Sequence record: OP172796.1 | Source of the DNA: Escherichia phage EF202P1 | Length of the DNA: 64,000 nt | Reading direction: 5' to 3' (one strand) | Part shown: positions 6,169 through 41,947 of the stretch, one piece after another | How the letters are laid out: every line of letters begins with the position of its first letter | Position numbering within the stretch: position 1 is the first letter of the stretch | The notes under the pieces: model-generated | What the model saw: only the letters and a program-made list of their open reading frames with translations | Told to the model about the DNA's origin: nothing | Database searches by the model: none | Program-made: the position numbers and the translations under genes

Positions 6169-6633
6169 TTACTTTGGGTATACACTGTCAAGATAAATGT
6201 CAGCTTCCATTCTACGTCTGTTTTTCAGGCCGTTTGAAGTGACCTTCTTACCTTTGACTGTAACCTTGTTCCACCACTGCATAGCTTCTGCACAACCTAC
6301 CTTATTACCAGCATTGTGGCGCTTGATAAATGTAGAATCCTGCATAGCTGTGATACCGATGTTGTATGTTTCACTTACAAGTGCATCGAACTCGTTCTGA
6401 GAAGTTGGAACCTTGATAGCTTTATTCACTGCTGCAACGAACTTCTCAACATCTGCAAGAAGATACTGTTCAGCTTGTTCAGCAGTAATTTTCATACCCA
6501 TCTTAACAGGTTTTCCGTCAATACGGATTGTACCATACCCGATTGTTGGGATTCCGGCAGAGTCTTCGTAAGCCTCTAACTTCAGACCTTCAAAGAACTT
6601 AATAGCTTCTAAACCTTTTCTTGAGAGTTGCAT
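6169..6633 (-). CDS. phage lysozyme / endolysin (T4 e-type, GH24-like)
   Basis: LEAYEDSAGIPTIGYGT motif typical of T4-type lysozymes; 154 aa. Confidence 0.8.
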   Translation of the reverse strand: MQLSRKGLEAIKFFEGLKLEAYEDSAGIPTIGYGTIRIDGKPVKMGMKITAEQAEQYLLADVEKFVAAVNKAIKVPTSQNEFDALVSETYNIGITAMQDSTFIKRHNAGNKVGCAEAMQWWNKVTVKGKKVTSNGLKNRRRMEADIYLDSVYPK

Positions 6634-7517
6634 TATGCCTCCCCTGTTGGGTTAACTGTAACTGTTGCCGCATTAGATGTTACAGAGCCACCTGCACCAG
6701 TAACTACACAAGTGTAGCTTCCTGCATCAGCAGCAGTTGCACCTTCTTTGGTGTAAGTTGCAGCAGTTGCGTCTGGGATGACTTCCTCACCTTTCTTCCA
6801 CTGGTAACCTGTTGCACCTGTTGCAGTCACTGCTAAGTTGATGTTCCCACCTTCATTGATGGTCTGACTAGAAGGTTGTTTGGTAATCACTGGTAAGGCG
6901 TTCACAGTAACTGTTGCTGCATCTGAGGTAACACTTGTTCCAGCCTCTCCAGATACAACACAAGTGTATGAACCAGCGTCAGAAGGCGCTACAGACTGTT
7001 TTGTGTAAGTTGCAGAAGTGGCACTGGGGATGTCCTCACCATCCTTCTTCCACTGATAGCCAGTGGCGTTAGTTGCTAGAACACTTAGAGTGAGTGTACC
7101 GCCCTCATTGACTGTTTGGCCTGTTGGTTGCTGAGTAATTGCTGGTGGCTTAATAGCATCTTTCAGCTTAGCATTCAACATTGAGAAAGGCTTAACTCTT
7201 GCCAGCCATTCACAATAAACTGTATCAACGTCTTTACCATTGATAATTGCGTATTGTAAATCCATGAAGAAGTCAGAAGTTCTCATTTGAGCACCGATGC
7301 TGTAAAGCAAATCATCACTAAAAGGGACTTTGTAGTCTGGTTTGTAGTCAAACTTCTCAACTTCTGCGATATCAGCTTCAGGCCAATATGAACTATAGGT
7401 AAGTGGTAAAATAGCTTCTTGATATGTTCTAAAATCATACCTCTTACCAGCCTTTACATTTGCAACGAAACCCTTTACAAATTCTTTGAAGTCTGGGTAA
7501 GTCTTTGCTTTAATCAT
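6633..7517 (-). CDS. protein with N-terminal domain paralogous to the 7514-7885 product plus two tandem Ig-like domains
   Basis: Two ~85-aa repeats (YQWKKDGEDIPSATSATYTK...AGSYTCVV) with Ig I-set-like signature; N-terminal ~120 aa resemble the adjacent ORF. Confidence 0.7.
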   Translation of the reverse strand: MIKAKTYPDFKEFVKGFVANVKAGKRYDFRTYQEAILPLTYSSYWPEADIAEVEKFDYKPDYKVPFSDDLLYSIGAQMRTSDFFMDLQYAIINGKDVDTVYCEWLARVKPFSMLNAKLKDAIKPPAITQQPTGQTVNEGGTLTLSVLATNATGYQWKKDGEDIPSATSATYTKQSVAPSDAGSYTCVVSGEAGTSVTSDAATVTVNALPVITKQPSSQTINEGGNINLAVTATGATGYQWKKGEEVIPDATAATYTKEGATAADAGSYTCVVTGAGGSVTSNAATVTVNPTGEA

Positions 7518-14562: not shown

Positions 14563-15120
14563 ATGAGATATTTGAAGTATGCTTCATGGATTTTCTTAGC
14601 TTTGTTAGAGCCATTTGCAGCAATCTTAGCAGTTATCTTAGCACCTTTCGTAGTTCCATTCTACAGTGAGAAGAAAGGACATCTCCCTTTTGGATTCAGA
14701 TGGATGGAGACATATGATAACCCAATTGATGGTGATGAAGGCCACGTTAAAAGATGGGCTAAGATTAGAAAGATTGGTAAGCTTGGTGTCTATATGCAGA
14801 GAGTTGGTTGGCTCTGGAGAAACAAAGCTTATAACTTCTCTTACCATGTGTTAGGAAGAGATGTAAAAGATGTTACTAAGTGGAAAGGCAATATCAATGT
14901 AAGTTCTAACCCTGAAGATAATCAGACAGGTTATCTCCTAATGTGGAACAGTAATGCTTGGGGATTATTCGCTTTTGTACCATCAATTAAAATCTTTGGT
15001 AAACAATTCTACTGGAGAATTTATGTTGGGTGGAAACTTAAAAGTGTTGTCCCAGAAGAAAGAGCATTCTCAAGGGAAAGAGTTATGTTGGCATTCTTTA
15101 TTCATCCACTAAGAAAATAA
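14563..15120 (+). CDS. hypothetical membrane-anchored protein (185 aa) embedded in the tRNA cluster
   Basis: N-terminal hydrophobic stretch WIFLALLEPFAAILAVILAPFVVPF; Trp-rich; AGAGG RBS. Confidence 0.65.
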   Translation: MRYLKYASWIFLALLEPFAAILAVILAPFVVPFYSEKKGHLPFGFRWMETYDNPIDGDEGHVKRWAKIRKIGKLGVYMQRVGWLWRNKAYNFSYHVLGRDVKDVTKWKGNINVSSNPEDNQTGYLLMWNSNAWGLFAFVPSIKIFGKQFYWRIYVGWKLKSVVPEERAFSRERVMLAFFIHPLRK

Positions 15121-15128
15121 AGATTTAA

Positions 15129-15204
15129 AGGGGATTAGTTTACAAGGTTAAAACCTCGGTCTTTGAAATCGAAGAAGTTGGTTCAATTCCAACATCCCCC
15201 GCCA
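15129..15204 (+). tRNA. tRNA-Gln (anticodon TTG)
   Basis: Acceptor AGGGGAT/ATCCCCC, anticodon loop CTTTGAA, T-arm GTTGG-TTCAATT-CCAAC, G73, CCA. Confidence 0.6.
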
Positions 15205-15206
15205 AT

Positions 15207-15285
15207 GCTCCATTACTCCAATTGGCAGAGAGGCCAGACTTAAAATCTGTGTTATGTATCGGTTCGAATCCGATATGGAGTACCA
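15207..15285 (+). tRNA. tRNA with Leu-type anticodon (TAA) but short variable arm
   Basis: Acceptor GCTCCAT/ATGGAGT, anticodon loop CTTAAAA, T-arm ATCGG-TTCGAAT-CCGAT, A73, CCA. Confidence 0.5.
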
Positions 15286-15290
15286 AATTT

Positions 15291-15366
15291 AGCGGTATAG
15301 CATAACTGGCAATGCAGCAGTCTCTGAAGCTGTCTTATTAAGGTTCAAATCCTTATGCCGCTGCCA
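15291..15366 (+). tRNA. tRNA-Gln-like (anticodon CTG; register uncertain)
   Basis: Acceptor AGCGGTA/TGCCGCT, D-arm GCAT-AACTGGCA-ATGC, loop CTCTGAA with wobble-paired stem, T-arm TAAGG-TTCAAAT-CCTTA, G73, CCA. Confidence 0.45.
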
Positions 15367-15397
15367 CTTCTAAGGGTTCTTATGAGAGTCCTTAAAT

Positions 15398-15473
15398 GTG
15401 GCCTTATCATAAAAGGTAATGACCCATGCTGTGAACATGGTCTATACGGGTTCAAATCCCGTAGGTCACCCCA
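15398..15473 (+). tRNA. tRNA-His (anticodon GTG)
   Basis: Acceptor GTGGCCT/AGGTCAC, anticodon arm CCATG-CTGTGAA-CATGG, T-arm ACGGG-TTCAAAT-CCCGT, C73, CCA. Confidence 0.7.
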
Positions 15474-15479
15474 ATTTAT

Positions 15480-15555
15480 AGTCCAAGTAGCTTATATGGT
15501 TAAAGCGCGTGTCTGAAAAACATGAGAAGAGGGTTCAAATCCCACTGGACTACCA
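15480..15555 (+). tRNA. tRNA-Phe (anticodon GAA)
   Basis: Acceptor AGTCCAA/CTGGACT, anticodon loop CTGAAAA, T-loop TTCAAAT, A73, CCA. Confidence 0.6.
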
Positions 15556-15571
15556 ATTTCAAAGGTGCTTA

Positions 15572-16306
15572 ATGAAAGAGATGACAGAACAAGGTAAGGA
15601 GATTTTTAATCTCTTAAAAACCGGTAGAGGGTTTTCTAATCCCCTTATTACTGGTGCAGCAGTTCTAGGTGGAACCGTGGCTGCCTCTACATCACTTGTA
15701 AGCTCTATTAGCTCTGTAACAGACCCTACAATGAAGGATAAGCTCATTGCTGCTGGACTTACAACAGTTCTGCTTAATAGCTTTACAACGAGTCTGACAA
15801 GCACTACATCAACTACTAAGACATTGACAGATTATGGTCAAAAGTCTATTGATGAGTTTTCTTCACGTATGCAGGTAGCAAAAGGCTACTCCAATGTTAT
15901 GGGTGCAGCAGGAGAGCAAGTCGGTTGTACACCATTTAGTGGTATTATGGGTGTTGCTACAGAATATGGTCAAAAAGCTATTGACACAATTAACAGTGCA
16001 CTAGATGGTGTTAATGGTGTATTAAGCGACTTACAAGATGCTATTGACAAAGGTCTTGATACTATTTCTGATTTAGCTAACCAAGCTGTTAGCAAGATTA
16101 ATGAGGGTATCTCAAAGATTACAGCTTATGCAGATGAAGTTGTGCAGATGATTGAAGAAGAAGCTGCCCTTATTGCAGAGTACCTTAAAACGAATATCAA
16201 TGGGTTCTTAGCAGGTATCTTACCAGACTGGTTTGATGATGCTTGTAAAACTGGTGTGATTGACACTATTGCAACACCAGAAATGAAGAACGCATTACAG
16301 AAATAA
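15572..16306 (+). CDS. hypothetical protein (244 aa), Ser/Thr-rich N-terminal region
   Basis: ORF; start moved to ATG 15572 because the longer ORF would overlap tRNA-Phe. Confidence 0.6.
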   Translation: MKEMTEQGKEIFNLLKTGRGFSNPLITGAAVLGGTVAASTSLVSSISSVTDPTMKDKLIAAGLTTVLLNSFTTSLTSTTSTTKTLTDYGQKSIDEFSSRMQVAKGYSNVMGAAGEQVGCTPFSGIMGVATEYGQKAIDTINSALDGVNGVLSDLQDAIDKGLDTISDLANQAVSKINEGISKITAYADEVVQMIEEEAALIAEYLKTNINGFLAGILPDWFDDACKTGVIDTIATPEMKNALQK

Positions 16307-16307
16307 T

Positions 16308-16400
16308 GGAAGATTAACCCTAAAAGGTAAGGGAGCAGTTTGCTAAACTGCCAGTAGCTGAGAAATCGGTGTACCAGTTCAAGTCTGGTATCTTCCTCCA
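16308..16400 (+). tRNA. tRNA-Ser (anticodon GCT), long variable arm
   Basis: Acceptor GGAAGAT/ATCTTCC, anticodon arm GCAGT-TTGCTAA-ACTGC, long variable arm, T-arm ACCAG-TTCAAGT-CTGGT, CCA. Confidence 0.7.
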
Positions 16401-16404
16401 ATTT

Positions 16405-16480
16405 GAATCCGTGACAGAAATGGCTATGTGCCTGTCTGCAAAACAGGTTTATAAGGGTTCGAGTCCCTTCGGATTCTCCA
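16405..16480 (+). tRNA. tRNA-Cys (anticodon GCA)
   Basis: Acceptor GAATCCG/CGGATTC, anticodon arm CCTGT-CTGCAAA-ACAGG, T-loop TTCGAGT, U73, CCA. Confidence 0.7.
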
Positions 16481-28179: not shown

Positions 28180-36198
<8,019 letters not shown>

Positions 36199-36200
36199 TA

Positions 36201-37388
36201 ATGGCAGTAGGTGAAATTCAAATTAGTGCCTTGCCTCAAGCAGCCTTACCAATTGACCTTAGTGATATCTTCCATCTTAAGCAGGGTATTGAGGATAAGA
36301 GGTGTACTCTTGAGCAATTACTTGCTCCACACTCAAGCCTAAAAAATAACCCTCATGGTGTTACTAAAACACAAATTGGTTTAGATAATGTTATTAATGC
36401 TCTTCAGTTAGTCGCTGCAAATAACTTATCAGATATTGTTAATGTAGCTGAGGCAAGAGCAAATCTACAGATTATGTCTTCAGAAGAGGTTAATAACCTT
36501 GTTCAGCAACATATCAAGGACAAGAGTAACCCACACAATACAACTAAGGCACAGGTTGGTTTAAGTAATGTTCAGAACTGGACAACATCTAACCTGTATA
36601 ATGAAGATGCAGATAAGTATGCTACAGCAAGAGCAGTAAATAATTTGTACAAGGCTGTTCAGGCTTCTTATCCAGTAGGTACTATCCATCTTTCTATGAA
36701 CTCTGCAAACCCTTCTACATACTTAATTTGTGGAGGTACTTGGGAGTTGGTTTCAAAAGGTAGGGCATTGGTTGGCTATGACTCTGATACAAGGCCAGCA
36801 GGTTCTGTATTTGGTGCTTCGACTGTCACTTTGTCAGTTAATAACATGCCTCAACACTCACACTCTGTATCTCTTAGTGGTGGTGGTCACACTCATAATG
36901 CAACTGTTTCAATTTCAGCTTTTGACTATGGAACAAAGACTACCAACTCTTTTGACTATGGAACAAAGACTACTAACACAACTGGTAACCACAATCACGT
37001 TGGTAGTGGGTCAACAAGTGCTGCTGGTGCTCACAACCACAGATTGACCTATGAAGCGGGTGGTGGCCTATCGGAGAGACCTGCAATGGTTTGGTCTACA
37101 AGAAATGACCAATCATGGTACTCAGCAGATGCTGTCTGTGAAGTCGCTGGTTCGCACACCCACTCTTTTAGCGTTACCACTAACACAACTGGTAACCATA
37201 ATCATACGGTGGGTATTGGTGCTCATAGCCATACAGTTGGTATTGGTTCACACACACACAATGGTACTGTGGCAGTTTCTTCTTCTGAGCATACACATAG
37301 TGGAAACACTAATAGTGTTGGTGGTGGACAAGCTTTCAACATTGAGCAGCCATCATTCGTGCTGTATGTATGGCAGAGAACAGCTTAA
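36201..37388 (+). CDS. tail fiber protein with His-rich HxH repeat tip
   Basis: Tandem FDYGTKTTN repeats and multiple HxH/HxHxH motifs (GNHNHV, AHNHRL, GSHTHSF, GAHSHTVGIGSHTHNG); C-terminus resembles that of the 37435-39819 product. Confidence 0.65.
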   Translation: MAVGEIQISALPQAALPIDLSDIFHLKQGIEDKRCTLEQLLAPHSSLKNNPHGVTKTQIGLDNVINALQLVAANNLSDIVNVAEARANLQIMSSEEVNNLVQQHIKDKSNPHNTTKAQVGLSNVQNWTTSNLYNEDADKYATARAVNNLYKAVQASYPVGTIHLSMNSANPSTYLICGGTWELVSKGRALVGYDSDTRPAGSVFGASTVTLSVNNMPQHSHSVSLSGGGHTHNATVSISAFDYGTKTTNSFDYGTKTTNTTGNHNHVGSGSTSAAGAHNHRLTYEAGGGLSERPAMVWSTRNDQSWYSADAVCEVAGSHTHSFSVTTNTTGNHNHTVGIGAHSHTVGIGSHTHNGTVAVSSSEHTHSGNTNSVGGGQAFNIEQPSFVLYVWQRTA

Positions 37389-37398
37389 TTTCTTTACA

Positions 37399-37418
37399 GG
37401 GGCTTTATAGCCCCTTTT
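37399..37418 (+). terminator. rho-independent terminator
   Basis: GGGGC-TTTATA-GCCCC plus TTTT. Confidence 0.65.
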
Positions 37419-37434
37419 AAGAGGAAAATTTATA

Positions 37435-39819
37435 ATGGCAGATTACAAATTGAGTGAATTAAACTCAATCGATACAATCCGTTCAGATGACCTTCTTCAT
37501 GTCAGAGTTAAAAAGAGACCTGAAATGCTGGGTGATGAAGACCGTCGAATGACCTATCAAGATTTCTTAGCATCTTTTAAGCTTGAGAGATTTGTTCAGA
37601 TTATTGGTAGTACCATGACGGGTGATTTAGGTATTGTTAAGTTACTTTATGGTGGTAAGACAGTATTTGACCCTACAGGCTCTTCTGAGATTAATATTGG
37701 GGATGTTTTAAAGACTTTTAAAATTAACGCAAACGGTCTTAAGCTAACTATTGCAGATGCTTCAAGGTCGGCAACTGTTTACCATACCCTGAATAAGCCA
37801 AGTCCTAATGAGCTTGGGATGAGAACTAATGAAGAGAATGATGCAAGATACTCAAGATTAGCTGCAAATAACATCTTTACCTTCCAACAGGTTATTCAAG
37901 CAAATGGCGAAGCTATTAGACTAAAAAATTCTTCTGAGAACTCACCGTTGTATATTAGAGGTCAGGACAGCACTGGTGCTAATAGGTGGTATGTAGGTAA
38001 TGGTTCAGGGAATGATGATGTTATTATCCACAACTACAAGACAGGTTGTGAAGTGAATCTGTCTAGTGTTGCTGCTATCAGTAAAACACTTAGAATCACT
38101 GGTCAAGTCCAACCTTCTGACTTCTCTAACTTAGATGCTAGATACTTCACACAGACAGTTGCTAATCAGAGATTTGCACAGTTAGCTGCTAATAACAATT
38201 TCACTGGCACTAACACGTTTAGCAGAAACCTACTTATTATTAGTGACAGTGCTGCTTTAAGGTTGAAAAATACTGTAGCAAATGCTGCACTATACGTTAA
38301 AGCCGAAGCTAATGATGGTTCTGGTAAGTGGTATGTAGGAAATGGTGATAATACACCTGCTGTATTCATCAGCAACTATGTGTATGGTTCTTATCTTAGA
38401 CTTGACAATGGTCATGTCGCAGTAAACAAGGACTTCAGAATCACTGGTCAAGTTCAACCTTCAGATTGGGCTAACATCGACTCTAGATACATCCCAGCAG
38501 CAACTTTGAGTAACCTACCTAAACTTAATGTTGCTAACACATTTGTGAATGTGCAAACTATTGTATCAAATAATGAAGGCGTAGTATTAAGAAACTTAAC
38601 ACAGGGACAGCCACAATATATCCGTGGTGTTGATACCCAGAATGTATCTAGGTGGTGGGTAGGTGTGGGTGGCACAAATTCTACTGATGTAGCATTAAAC
38701 AACAGCTACTCTGGGACTCAAATTACTCTTATGTCCTCAGCGATTAAGGCTAATAAGAATCTAACCATTACTGGTCAAGTACAACCTTCTGATTGGTCTA
38801 ACTTAGATGCTAGATATTTTGTTAAAACTCAGTTATTAAATCAATCCTTAATGACTGTCTCTGTAGATAACCTTGAAAACCCTTCAGCATTTAATCTTGG
38901 ATATTCAGGTTTTGTCAGAAACAACAGTGTGACTAGTGGTCTGAAAGAGTTGGCAATTCATGTTGCTCACTCTAGTAAGTCTGCTGCACATGCAAGGGGT
39001 ATCTCTTTTGTATACGGTTCAAACGGTTTGGCAACATTCACCTATGCCTATGACAAAGACGGCAGATATGCTGGGGAAGCACAGCTTTACACAACTGATT
39101 TTAAACCAACCCCTTCAGATATTGGTGCATACACTAAAGCTGAAACTGACCAGAAGATTGCACAGGCAGTAAGTGACTCTACAGACCTTAACAAAATCTA
39201 TCCAGTTGGTATTGTAACGTGGTTTAACAGTAATGTTGACCCTAATACAGCACTTCCTGGTCTAACTTGGACGTACCTGAACAATGGTGTTGGTAGAACT
39301 ATCAGAATCGCAGCAGCAAACGGTTCAGATGTTGCTACAACTGGTGGTTCAGACTCTGTAACTTTAGCTGTTGGTAACTTACCATCACACACTCACAGTT
39401 TCTCTGCTACCACTTCATCTTTTGATTATGGTACGAAGGGCACTAATAGTACTGGTGGTCATACTCACTCTGTAAGTGGTACAACAAGTGCTGCTGGTAA
39501 CCACGCTCACCACTTAGGTTTGTTATTAGTTAATGGTGGCGATGCTTTGTACGGTTATACAACAGTTGGTAACAATAAGACAAGGACTCTTGACTGGCTT
39601 GACAGAACTGATAACAAGTTCCCTAACACTAACACAACTGGTAACCATACACACACATGGTCTGGTACTACAAGCAACACTGGTGCTCACACCCACTCTG
39701 TAGGTATCGGTGCTCACACTCATACAGTTAGTGGTAACACTGGTGGTACAGGTTCTGGTTCAGCATTTAGTGTTACTAACCAGTTCTACAAGTTAATGGC
39801 TTGGGTAAGAACTGCTTAA
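37435..39819 (+). CDS. long tail fiber protein with three internal ~110-aa repeats and His-rich tip
   Basis: Repeats containing [10 protein letters not shown](F/W)(S/A)N(L/I)D(A/S)RY; C-terminal FDYGTKGTN plus HxH motifs shared with the 36201-37388 product. Confidence 0.7.
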
Positions 39820-39898
39820 TCCCTTGTTGACTGATTGTTAAGATGGTGTTAATATTCTTTATGGGTATTCTCACCATCTTGGCTGATGAGGTGATTAA

Positions 39899-40096
39899 AT
39901 GCCTACAATCCTAGCAATTCTTCTAAAAAATCTAGGTAGCTTCTTCTGGAAACTCATTTTATCCCTTCTAAGTGAATACATGATTGAGAAAGTGTTCTTT
40001 AGGCTTGCAAGATACCTTGCGAGTAAAACAGACACACCTATTGATGATGAGTTCGTAGATAACTTAGAAAAAGCTTTTAAGGGGGAGAATAAATGA
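39899..40096 (+). CDS. small membrane protein (65 aa)
   Basis: Single hydrophobic helix (ILAILLKNLGSFFWKLILSLL). Confidence 0.45.
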   Translation: MPTILAILLKNLGSFFWKLILSLLSEYMIEKVFFRLARYLASKTDTPIDDEFVDNLEKAFKGENK

Positions 40097-40464
40097 AGTG
40101 GCTAGAGGAAGCTTTTAAAAATAATATTGGTGCAATTGTAGTTGGTATTTTTAGTGTTATTGGGATGTATACCACCATGCAAGTTTCGGATGGTAAACAA
40201 GAAGTGTCTATCACAACAAAGTTACAGCAGTTGGATAATTATTCCAAAAGTAATTATTCAGCTATCCGTGATTTACAGTCTGATATGAGGTTGCTTCAGC
40301 TAGGGATGGAGAACCAGAAAGTCCAGTTAGAGAATGTTAAGGGTGAGAACGCAAAACTTACTAAGACTCTTGATAAATTCTCTGATAGTGTGAACAATCT
40401 GGCTCAATCAGTATCAGCCCTCCAAGCTATTACTGAAAAGAACACAAAGAATACTGAAAAGTAA
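40093..40464 (+). CDS. membrane-anchored coiled-coil protein (123 aa)
   Basis: N-terminal hydrophobic helix followed by Q/L-rich helical region. Confidence 0.5.
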   Translation: MKWLEEAFKNNIGAIVVGIFSVIGMYTTMQVSDGKQEVSITTKLQQLDNYSKSNYSAIRDLQSDMRLLQLGMENQKVQLENVKGENAKLTKTLDKFSDSVNNLAQSVSALQAITEKNTKNTEK

Positions 40465-40471
40465 AGTTTAA

Positions 40472-40497
40472 GGCTCCTTTTTACGGGAGCCTTTTTT
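40472..40497. terminator. terminator hairpin between convergent blocks
   Basis: GGCTCC-TTTTTAC-GGGAGCC followed by T6. Confidence 0.6.
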
Positions 40498-40500
40498 GTT

Positions 40501-41400
40501 TTATTTACCTACTGACAAAGGTGCTTCAATCTTTCCTGCATGTTGGTAATTGTTAATACCACCAATAAAGTCACTTGCAGTGAGATGTTTTAAGTCACTT
40601 AAAGTGTTAAGTGGGATACCAATCTCAAAAGTTGGTGCATGGAACTCTTCATTGTTCATCAGTTCATAAACCTGCTTCATATGGTTCTGATAAATCTGGG
40701 TATCTCCAAAAACACCTATCAAGTACCGTGGAGTGTATCCAGCCATCTTACAAAGAACTTCCAGAATAAAGCCATAAGATGCAATGTTAAAGGGAAGTCC
40801 TAAAAAGGTGTCTACAGAACGCTGATACCATTGTAAGTCAACTTCACCCTCGTTAGTGATATAAATCTGAAACAGAACATGACAAGGTGCTAAAGCCATT
40901 GAGTTAGCTGCAATATCTGCTGCATTCCAAGCATTAACAAGCATGTAACGGTCTGTGATATCACCCTTCATCTTCGTTACTAAGGTATCTAACTGGTCTA
41001 CAACACAACCATTATGACCTTCAAAGTTCCTCCACTGAACCCCATAAATCCTTCCACCTGCATCTTCTAACCAATCTTGTTCAGAAGAATAATTAGAGCT
41101 TAACCAGCGTTTGAAATCATCTGACCAGATTGTCCAACGTTCTCCGTCATTTTCACCCCAAGTACGGTAACGGAGTTCACCCAGTTTATTCTCACCGTTC
41201 AGGAACCATAAAGCTTCCCCAATAACTTGCCGTGTAAACACCTGTTTAGATGTTAAAAGTGGGAAACCAGTTCTCATATCAAAACGAAATTGTGGTGGAG
41301 CAAATGCAGAGATAACAGCTCCAGTTCGTGTAGTACGCAGTTCACCGACTGATAAAACATGGTTCAGGATATTTTTGTAACTTGTATCTGCTTGTGACAT
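40501..41400 (-). CDS. thyA: thymidylate synthase
   Basis: 299 aa; sequence resembles ThyA throughout, including the catalytic Cys region (ALAPCHVLFQIY) and C-terminal motifs. Confidence 0.85.
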   Translation of the reverse strand: MSQADTSYKNILNHVLSVGELRTTRTGAVISAFAPPQFRFDMRTGFPLLTSKQVFTRQVIGEALWFLNGENKLGELRYRTWGENDGERWTIWSDDFKRWLSSNYSSEQDWLEDAGGRIYGVQWRNFEGHNGCVVDQLDTLVTKMKGDITDRYMLVNAWNAADIAANSMALAPCHVLFQIYITNEGEVDLQWYQRSVDTFLGLPFNIASYGFILEVLCKMAGYTPRYLIGVFGDTQIYQNHMKQVYELMNNEEFHAPTFEIGIPLNTLSDLKHLTASDFIGGINNYQHAGKIEAPLSVGK

Positions 41401-41401
41401 A

Positions 41402-41947
41402 TCAAAAGTGTCCTTTTACTTGTGGAACATAAATTTCAAAAGTTGCTTTACCATCCTCTGATGGTTTTGACTGTACCTTTGTAAATACACGGTTATCATA
41501 CAGCTTCTCAAAGAAGTTTTCAAAAGGTAAATGCACAGTGGCCTCTTCAGTAACTTTATGGAAAACAGTATGGAACACCACACCAGCATACGGTAAAGCA
41601 TTGACAAGGATACCTGCACCACCAATTACAAAGACATCTTCATCAATAGAGCTATCAAGATACTTCAAAAATGCTCCAAATGAATCTTTACTGGCTTTAG
41701 CATACATTACATCATCTTTGCCAAAGTCTATGCCTAAGTATGGTACAGAATTTGTTAAGATGAGGTTTGCACGTTCTGGTAAAGGCTTACTCCCCAGAGT
41801 CTTGAAAGTCTCATTCCCCATCACTACTAAGTTATTTTTAGTGAGTCTCTTAAACTCTTGCATGTCCTGTTTATGTCGAGGCCACGGCATACCAGTTGGA
41901 GTACCAAACTCACCATTTTCACCACTTGCAAAGATTAATTTAATCAT
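41402..41947 (-). CDS. folA: dihydrofolate reductase
   Basis: 181 aa; N-terminal MIKLIFASGENGEFGT..MPW and VVMGNETFK..LP.R motifs; adjacent to thymidylate synthase. Confidence 0.8.
   Translation of the reverse strand: MIKLIFASGENGEFGTPTGMPWPRHKQDMQEFKRLTKNNLVVMGNETFKTLGSKPLPERANLILTNSVPYLGIDFGKDDVMYAKASKDSFGAFLKYLDSSIDEDVFVIGGAGILVNALPYAGVVFHTVFHKVTEEATVHLPFENFFEKLYDNRVFTKVQSKPSEDGKATFEIYVPQVKGHF

Follow-up and report, generated by a model that had tools for sequence, protein, structure and literature searches.

Two adjacent genes in the window (the whole 64,000-nt stretch of DNA that was analysed) had been described from the sequence alone as tail fibres with a common His-rich tip module, and the locus raises the question of what these tips are and whether their likeness reflects an exchange between the two genes. 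The source phage is a Felixounavirus (Felix O1-like myovirus), with vB_EcoM-LTH02 as the best megablast match of the query (96.4% nucleotide identity, 100% query coverage) and nearly all of the 247 matched phage records being of Felixounavirus type. We are highly confident that the two genes encode trimeric short and long tail fibres (STF and LTF) with gp37-type tips and, in the LTF, a gp17-related shaft, and that the two tips are old paralogues varied by cassette replacement.

The fibre locus

33567-35036, baseplate wedge ORF, 489 aa, Baseplate_J (ORF and domain search)
35033-35896, ORF of 287 aa upstream of the fibre pair
35896-36198, ORF of 100 aa directly before the STF gene
36201-37388, plus strand, STF gene, 395 aa (ORF; phrog_2097 tail fiber, E 2e-137)
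37435-39819, plus strand, LTF gene, 794 aa (ORF; phrog_4277, E 0, full length)

The limits given for the two adjacent plus-strand genes in the preliminary description are exact, and its reading of both as tail fibres agrees with their PHROG tail-fibre families and with a gene order shared with the fibre pairs of Bas63, Sf14 and Felix O1. The locus runs from baseplate wedge genes through the 100-aa protein, STF, LTF and two small ORFs to thyA on the opposite strand, in the order seen in relatives, and the part from the wedge genes to the LTF has an identical layout in six of them; the roles of the wedge proteins and the 100-aa fibre-platform protein are assigned from Bas63 (PMC12609058). The STF is 100% identical at the amino acid level to the tail fiber of vB_EcoM-LTH02. 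A scan for promoters and terminators across 35800-40600 gave counts not above those of shuffled sequence, a terminator-like hairpin at 40470-40493 being the sole standout.

Tips of the T4 gp37 type

In the T4 tip structure, three chains leave a collar, run up as a beta-stranded needle, form a head and return down to the collar. This tip (2XGF) is matched by STF aa 146-366 over its residues 18-227 (phmmer, E 7e-26) and by LTF aa 647-773 over residues 94-218 (E 1.7e-21), and because both tips match it, the analogy to T4 gp37 that had been proposed is one of homology, not mere resemblance. Each fibre ends in a receptor-binding tip of this type, and we infer that both fibres form trimers. The parts of the STF are as follows.

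36201-36335, plus strand, N-terminal region, aa 1-45, with the motif EDKRCT (near-invariant among relatives)
36636-36854, plus strand, collar of T4 gp10/gp37 type, about aa 146-218 (PF21939 Gp10_C, E 1.3e-18)
36855-37046, plus strand, ascending needle strand, aa 219-282 (HxH at 219, 230, 264 and 278; aligned to the gp37 needle)
36919-36978, plus strand, 30-bp in-frame tandem FDYGTKTTNS + FDYGTKTTNT, aa 241-260 (TRF period 30, 2.0 copies)
37047-37154, plus strand, hypervariable head, aa 283-318 (aligns to the T4 gp37 head)
37155-37385, plus strand, descending needle and C-terminal strand returning to the collar, ending in FVLYVWQRTA (HxH at 319, 333, 342, 351 and 364)

The C-termini are as previously described in both ORF translations, and so are the multiple HxH motifs near them, with nine in the STF and six in the LTF, counts that none of 5000 composition-preserving shuffles per whole protein reached. 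The HxH motifs of 2XGF coordinate iron in T4 gp37 (PMC12609058), and by homology to its seven we would predict nine metal sites in the STF and six in the LTF; both tips probably bind iron. The runs might also be read as compositional low complexity in a Gly/Ser/Thr/His-rich stretch with no metal role, and the region is indeed low-complexity enough for BLAST to mask it, which is why tblastn of the LTF tip matched T-even phages over the head only. This reading is very unlikely given how the histidines are placed and conserved: all those in the tips sit in HxH motifs except H693, the motifs align one-to-one with those of T4 (7/7 with STF motifs and 6/7 with LTF motifs, the two STF motifs beyond the T4 set lying near the collar at aa 230 and 364), and across 57 STF homologues, down to 27% identity, conservation reaches 90% or more for the pairs 219/221 and 278/280 and is complete for 351/353.

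The collar raises a different alternative, that the short protein is no fibre at all but belongs to the baseplate structure, as T4 gp10 does. No Pfam domain other than Gp10_C passes the threshold in it, and the C-terminal domain of T4 gp10 (2FKK) resembles these fibre collars not only in PF21939 but also by phmmer (E 2e-5) and Foldseek (probability 0.98; 30% identity over 95 columns in the STF). However, the gp10-like part is the collar only, where phmmer also matches 2XGF and AF2 pLDDT is 80-92; the best Pfam stretch covers aa 154-261, the gp10 matches in the PDB end at about aa 220, and the remainder of the protein corresponds in alignment to the needle and head of gp37. The gp10 version is a baseplate domain without a needle, whereas the collar in these fibres bears an HxH needle. 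The top PHROG family is tail fiber, and the STF homologue appears in cryoEM of Bas63 and Sf14 as a 430-Å short fibre on the wedge, beside a 630-Å long fibre (PMC12609058, PMC11821841). We give the baseplate-protein reading almost no weight and retain that of a short tail fibre.

The N-terminal region of the STF is presumed to be its baseplate-binding domain, in line with the report of its motif for Sf14 (PMC11821841) and with the structurally conserved N-terminal baseplate-binding domain of Bas63 (PMC12609058). The STF and LTF N-termini are weakly similar (BLASTP E 0.054; hhalign E 0.0018, probability 15%), which makes a common anchor plausible, and each fibre chain may open with a short baseplate-binding region bearing ED(K/R)R(C/M)T. 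At the other end, the sets of HxH motifs flank the variable head and are followed by a conserved C-terminal strand. The head, presumed to be the receptor-contact part, is only 46-51% identical to relatives at the nucleotide level, as against 90-98% in its flanks. An AF2 model of the STF, computed as a single-chain monomer from a 57-sequence alignment, has a mean pLDDT of 67.8 (below 50 in the head and 54-77 in the needle), with beta strands on either side of the head and the C-terminal strand, aa 389-393, in a block of pLDDT 92. Among PDB entries, Foldseek matched this monomer to the gp10 collar 2FKK and, through beta-hairpins that look alike by chance, to pore-forming toxins, but not to 2XGF, as is expected when an intertwined trimer is modelled as one chain; from such a model the needle gains no independent support in structure.

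Within the ascending strand, the 30-bp tandem of the first fibre exists, but it lies at 36919-36978, about 17 nt from the 36936-36995 originally assigned. Its units (36919-36948 and 36949-36978; TRF span 36919-36977, 96% match) share an exact 25-nt run and are identical at 27/30 nt, more than in any other genome compared, as might be expected if slippage had duplicated the unit recently, or if the assembly were at fault, in this phage alone. That origin is nonetheless very improbable: each of the seven relatives aligned (LTH02, REP8, RPN213, HY02, Alf5, Sf14 and SUSP2) has the two units in the same register and at the same codons, identical to each other at 17-24/30 nt there and at 17-27/30 nt over the whole set, T4 gp37 carries a related double unit in the alignment, and nine HxH with two FDYGTK-type units is the commonest form in 74 STF homologue clusters. 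On these alignments, the tandem is an old two-unit feature. FDYGTK repeats had been described for both fibres, which is true of the STF (two units, aa 241-260) but not of the LTF, where a single FDYGTKGTN occurs at aa 663.

The long fibre and its tip cassette

37819-38154, plus strand, LTF shaft repeat 1, aa 129-240 (self-HMM E 2e-61; PF20744 E 6e-24)
38155-38496, plus strand, LTF shaft repeat 2, aa 241-354 (self-HMM E 6e-57; PF20744 E 8e-18)
38497-38826, plus strand, LTF shaft repeat 3, aa 355-464 (self-HMM E 4e-58; PF20744 E 3e-27)
38827-39180, plus strand, LTF segment, aa 465-582 (PF12604 gp37_C at 21.9 bits, below cut-off, E 2e-4)
39181-39412, plus strand, LTF collar and first HxH, HTH at 652 (PF21939 E 1.2e-5 on the fragment)
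39413-39728, plus strand, LTF needle-head cassette, aa 661-765 (FDYGTKGTN; HxH at 676, 690, 738, 752 and 761; head)
39729-39816, plus strand, lineage-specific LTF C-terminal segment returning to the collar (alignment)

The three repeats of about 110 aa that the preliminary description had built around (R/T)ITGQVQPSD(F/W)(S/A)N(L/I)D(A/S)RY are all recovered as PF20744 (gp37_trimer) units, scoring 84.3, 64.8 and 94.9 bits against a Pfam gathering cut-off of 21.7. The repeats end at aa 240, 355 and 464 (motif spacings of 115 and 109 aa), the units are 30-43% identical, and searching the LTF with an HMM made from its own three repeats revealed no further copies. A 21-unit repeat profile searched against the PDB matched the T7 gp17 pyramid (4A0T/4A0U, E 3e-7 to 5e-7), over gp17 residues 368-437, and the Mu fibre 5YVQ (E 3e-3). 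The shaft between anchor and tip is made of three tandem gp17-pyramid-related domains of about 110 aa, each closed by a QPSD(W/F)xNLDxRY linker. The segment that follows, aa 465-582, falls below the PF12604 cut-off (22.5 bits), so its likeness to that family is only a hint.

The tips of the two fibres are related on alignment, as had been thought (36% identity over about 230 aa, E 5e-22), and recombination within the genome might have given one fibre a recent copy of the other's tip. The FDYGTK, GxHxH and GIGAHxHTV motifs common to both tips do give DNA matches of 15-81 nt, but even the longest of these is only 75% identical, and a protein identity of just 36% argues that no recent exchange between the STF and LTF tips took place. 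Moreover, the STF needle has extra segments in both strands that are absent from the LTF, the LTF cassette is far nearer to T-even gp37 (92% at the amino acid level) than to the STF, and the Ounavirinae relatives examined have retained the two fibre types, each of them with a collar and C-terminus of its own; in none of the eight genomes aligned do the STF and LTF tips exceed 90% DNA identity. We regard copying within the genome as highly improbable, and the two tips are, as judged by their sequences, old paralogues.

The exchange that can be traced is instead with other phages. The LTF cassette aligns ungapped over 316 nt to gp37 of AV122 and SHBML-50-1, with 87.7% and 86.1% nucleotide identity, and aa 661-765 are identical at 97/105 and 96/105 positions, respectively. 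Its edges are sharp, nucleotide identity dropping to 7-16/30 in the left flank and 7-8/30 in the right, and outside it AV122 gp37 is unrelated or distant (23/112 aa in the collar and 10/43 aa in the C-terminal segment). The LTF collar, unrelated to that of AV122, is lineage-specific and conserved among Felixounaviruses (91-95% nucleotide identity to relatives in the bin 39201-39400), and the C-terminal segment is identical at 30/30 positions in REP8. The REP8 LTF carries a T4-type cassette instead (92% nucleotide identity over 287 nt), and relatives in general hold other cassettes between conserved anchors: identity to them is 90-98% in the anchor segments but falls to 28-70% across the STF tip, the shaft of the LTF and its needle-head. 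The earlier suggestion that receptor-binding tips are exchanged is thus supported by the T4-like cassette of the LTF and the differing cassettes of relatives, but not by the STF/LTF likeness on which it had been based. Variation is best explained by replacement of cassettes between conserved anchor sequences, with the collar and FDYGTK before the cassette and GIGAHxHT and the C-terminal strand after it. The pattern suggests that gp37-type heads move between unrelated myovirus families.

Fibre tips determine which bacteria a phage can attack, and knowing the limits of an exchangeable cassette could for this reason aid host-range engineering and receptor prediction. The head, the most variable part of the tip, likely contacts the lipopolysaccharide (LPS) core. 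AV122 fails on waaC and waaR LPS-core mutants (PMC10844046), and because the cassette is nearly identical to gp37 of such LPS-core-dependent T4-like phages, the analogy suggests that the LTF of the present phage reads the outer LPS core, with homology to AV122 as the sole basis for the assignment.

The T4 gp37 tip type depends on the chaperones gp38 and gp57A, whereas we found a homologue of neither here: tblastn with the T4 and SHBML-50-1 gp38 gave a best E of 0.43 across the 64-kb window and the full LTH02 genome, and T4 gp57A gave no match at E up to 10 in the same sequences. This absence is at the level of sequence, leaving room for an unrelated chaperone. The same T-even cassette (92% amino acid identity) adjoins gp38 in Tequatroviruses and occurs here with no gp38 or gp57A homologue. 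We tentatively raise the possibility, which we think rather unlikely, that the LTF folds without chaperones of the gp38/gp57A type; if so, it would be the collar and C-terminal flanks, rather than the needle and head, that confer chaperone dependence. The LTF would in that case offer a naturally occurring scaffold, free of chaperones, onto which T4-type receptor-binding heads could be grafted, with the FDYGTK and GIGAHxHT motifs as natural splice points.

Comparison with known fibres

The architecture described here is already published for Felix O1 (2010), Sf14 and Bas63 (2025), and for that reason the finding is correct but ordinary; the sole modest addition is the exact boundary of the cassette, 39413-39728, and the finding that this cassette is nearly identical to gp37 in T4-like phages dependent on the LPS core. 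The Felix O1 genome paper noted C-termini similar to T4 gp37 in gp76 and gp77 (PMC3185647), the two fibres of Sf14 were described as having T7 gp17-like, Mu gp49-like and T4 gp37-like parts (PMC11821841), and cryoEM of Bas63 resolved an STF and an LTF with collar, HxH needle and head (PMC12609058). The STF is homologous to Bas63 gp26, Sf14 gp52 and Felix O1 gp76, and the LTF to Bas63 gp27, Sf14 gp53 and Felix O1 gp77. As here, these pairs have an N-terminal anchor and a gp37-like collar-needle-head in both fibres and a repeat-domain shaft in the long fibre only, and fibre lengths are nearly equal (395 and 794 aa here, 391 and 792 aa in Sf14). Differences from Bas63, which we know from the text of its paper only, lie in the HxH count of the STF, nine here against the seven counted there (PMC12609058) and the seven of the relatives Alf5 and SUSP2, so the length of the STF needle would differ from the published model. 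They also lie in the extra LTF histidine, which forms HAHH here (H690, H692, H693) and HHxH in Bas63 (H692, H693, H695), and in the five beta-helix domains described for the Bas63 LTF (PMC12609058), compared with three clear repeats by our sequence methods.

Each LTF shaft repeat corresponds to the T7 gp17 pyramid (4A0T/4A0U, 7BOZ), to PF20744 and to the Mu fibre 5YVQ. Relative to T7 gp17, this domain is tripled in tandem and placed mid-fibre, and a gp37-type tip then replaces the gp17 tip domain. With T4 gp37, both fibres share collar-needle-head homology, aligned HxH motifs, FDYGTK and a hydrophobic C-terminal strand ending in R-x-A, but the number of HxH motifs (nine and six against seven) and the head sequences differ, and T4 gp37 makes up the distal quarter of a fibre built from four proteins, whereas here each fibre is a single protein. 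The T-even gp37 proteins of AV122 and SHBML-50-1 have three GTK units where the LTF has one, and their descending strand is richer in HxH motifs (eight per tip against six in the LTF, counted from the alignment), and in these Tequatroviruses the gp37 gene is followed by that of gp38.

The fibre locus

Two adjoining fibre genes occupy exactly the limits that the preliminary description had given them, and we name their products STF (short tail fibre) and LTF (long tail fibre) after the Bas63 cryo-EM paper (PMC12609058).

Features of the two fibres (window coordinates unless marked aa)
36201-37388, + strand: STF ORF, 395 aa
37435-39819, + strand: LTF ORF, 794 aa, adjoining the STF ORF
36919-36948 and 36949-36978: the two units of the 30-bp tandem in STF
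LTF aa 129-240, 239-354 and 352-464: LTF repeat units, 30-43% identical pairwise

Baseplate genes for a Baseplate_J protein (489 aa) and for proteins of 287 and 100 aa precede the pair. Beyond it lie two small ORFs and a terminator-like hairpin, then the genes for thymidylate synthase and dihydrofolate reductase in convergent orientation. This gene order recurs in six relatives, which belong to three genera (Felixounavirus, Mooglevirus and Suspvirus). Megablast of 36201-39819 returned 247 phage records, nearly all Felix O1-like, led by Escherichia phage vB_EcoM-LTH02 (96.4% identity over 100% of the query), whose ‘tail fiber’ shares 100% amino acid identity with STF. The small ORFs (39899-40464, +) encode 65 and 123 aa, and the second is annotated as a putative holin in some relatives; here it gave only weak Rz-like and DivIC-like matches. 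The strong hairpin at 40470-40493 ends the plus-strand block ahead of thyA and DHFR (40501-41947, - strand). For the wedge protein of 287 aa, the longest reading frame begins at a GTG overlapping the upstream gene (35033-35038), and relatives are annotated as starting 6 nt downstream, a trivial start-codon ambiguity. Elsewhere in the window, 25 clustered tRNA genes occupy 11178-16480 (+), with tRNA-His (gtg) among them at 15398-15473; the corresponding cluster in the LTH02 annotation has fewer.

Relationship of both tips to T4 gp37

When all PDB chains were searched by sequence, gp37 of the T4 long tail fibre (tip structure 2XGF) ranked first for both STF (E 7e-26, aa 146-366) and LTF (E 1.7e-21, aa 647-773). 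The STF alignment extends from the collar and the ascending strand, which bears the FDYGTK motif, through the head to the descending strand. The collar by itself also matches T4 gp10 (Pfam PF21939; PDB 2FKK). HxH motifs, which in T4 coordinate iron ions along the needle of a collar-needle-head tip also present in both Bas63 fibres (PMC12609058), are found nine times in STF (aa 219, 230, 264, 278, 319, 333, 342, 351 and 364) and six times in LTF (aa 652, 676, 690, 738, 752 and 761), and every tip histidine lies within one except H693 of LTF. For neither fibre was the observed count reached in any of 5000 shuffles of the whole protein. All seven T4 motifs align with STF motifs and six of the seven with LTF motifs, while the two STF motifs beyond the T4 set (aa 230 and 364) lie near the collar, one per strand. 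The likeness to gp37 put forward in the preliminary description is therefore one of true homology, and its multiple HxH motifs and quoted C-termini were confirmed in the translated ORFs. The tips are also related to each other, as had been claimed (36% identity over about 230 residues, E 5e-22). We infer that every HxH would help to form one metal site in the trimer, so that STF would have nine sites and LTF six, versus seven in T4. The baseplate spike protein (32525-33148, +, 207 aa) is a third HxH-bearing tail protein in the window, with a single HTH at aa 188-190 (...NEHTHHYYW), positions equal to those reported for the iron-binding H188 and H190 of the Bas63 puncturing apparatus.

As a check proposed in the preliminary description, an AF2 monomer model of STF was built with 57 homologues (mean pLDDT 67.8; collar 80-92, needle blocks 54-77, head below 50). 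A Foldseek search of the PDB yielded the gp10 collar domain (probability 0.98) and otherwise mostly long-hairpin pore-forming toxins; 2XGF was absent from these matches. A six-His site in an intertwined trimer is beyond what a one-chain model can test. The case for a T4-type fold of the STF tip thus rests on sequence homology, the model being neutral either way.

The 30-bp tandem in STF exists but lies at 36919-36978 rather than 36936-36995. The FDYGTK repeats described for both fibres amount to two units in STF and one unit in LTF. We rejected a fresh duplication as the origin of the tandem because two units occur at matching codons in all seven relatives aligned; the units are identical at 17-24 of 30 nt in these relatives versus 27 of 30 here. 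T4 gp37 carries a related double-unit stretch of 18 residues. Across 74 STF homologue clusters the unit count varies between 0 and 4, and the combination of two units and nine HxH is seen most often.

Shaft, stalk and N-termini

The three internal LTF repeats are real, each unit exceeding the Pfam PF20744 cut-off. Repeat units from seven phages, 21 in all, were combined into a profile that matched the T7 fibre gp17 pyramid domain (4A0T/4A0U and 7BOZ, E 3e-7 to 5e-7) and a phage tail fibre protein S (5YVQ, E 3e-3). The Sf14 paper identified the latter as Mu gp49, and the matches agree with the T7 gp17-like and Mu gp49-like parts noted there (PMC11821841). LTF aa 465-582 scored 21.9 bits against Pfam PF12604, just under the 22.5-bit cut-off. 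Sequence methods found no LTF repeats beyond these three clear copies, whereas five beta-helix domains were counted in Bas63 LTF (PMC12609058). Both N-termini contain an ED(K/R)R(C/M)T motif, as noted for Sf14 (PMC11821841), and their possible homology has weak statistical support. The STF stalk holds two copies of NPHxxTKxQ(I/V)GLxNV (36348-36401 and 36528-36581; aa 50-67 and 110-127), and STF aa 23-156 drew tblastn matches to jumbo phages (Goslar, KpLz-2_45, Ralstonia FLC4-3B), Serratia phage Kodama and Bacillus SPbeta-like phages.

A T-even-type cassette in the LTF tip

In relatives, an identity of 90-98% across the baseplate genes, fibre N-termini and LTF collar drops to 28-70% in the STF tip (about 37001-37200), LTF shaft (37801-39200) and LTF needle-head (39401-39800). 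We saw no sign of recent exchange between the STF and LTF tips of this genome, since their DNA reaches at most 75% identity over 81 nt. The LTF tip reaches T4-like phages by tblastn, and 39413-39728 aligns ungapped with gp37 of the Tequatroviruses AV122 (87.7% nt, 97 of 105 residues) and SHBML-50-1 (86.1% nt, 96 of 105). Identity to these phages falls to 7-16 of 30 nt outside the left edge and 7-8 of 30 outside the right, and the collar and C-terminal strand on either side are specific to the lineage. Both edges sit in conserved sequences, SSFDYGTK and GIGAHTHTV, reminiscent of an older proposal that recombination in T-even fibre genes takes place at conserved ‘His box’ motifs. In contrast to this near-identity with T-even gp37, the STF tip occurs above 95% identity solely in roughly 31 Felixounavirus-type records; its T-even matches reach at most about 50%. 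Two VpaE1-named variant records, LR597663 (VpaE1_ev78) and LR699048 (VpaE1_ev035), have differing STF tips, 97% and 71% identical to that of the window. The LTF of the Felixounavirus REP8 carries a second, independent T-even-type cassette between equal flanks (about 6400-6686 of the REP8 locus), 92% identical to T4 gp37 over 287 nt.

The main cassette difference is at LTF aa 713-717 (39571-39585), NNKTR here and NSLPR in AV122 and SHBML-50-1, a stretch that may be a receptor-contact loop. By analogy, the outer LPS core would be the ligand of the LTF head, because that head is nearly identical to the head of AV122, which is unable to infect waaC and waaR LPS-core mutants and for which its authors suggested an LPS core receptor (PMC10844046). 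Neither gp38 nor gp57A has a detectable homologue in the window or the complete LTH02 genome, whereas in AV122 and SHBML-50-1 a gp38 gene lies directly 3′ of gp37.

The preliminary description read the fibres and their tips correctly and well, but the finding is already known. The present phage is 96% identical to an existing GenBank entry, and the only addition here, a small one, is where exactly the T-even-type cassette in LTF begins and ends (39413-39728). Similarity to T4 gp37 was noted for both Felix O1 fibres in 2010 (PMC3185647), the two-fibre architecture of collar, HxH needle and head was seen by cryo-EM of Sf14 and Bas63 in 2025 (PMC11821841, PMC12609058), and high variability of tips and shaft was reported for Bas63 (PMC12609058).
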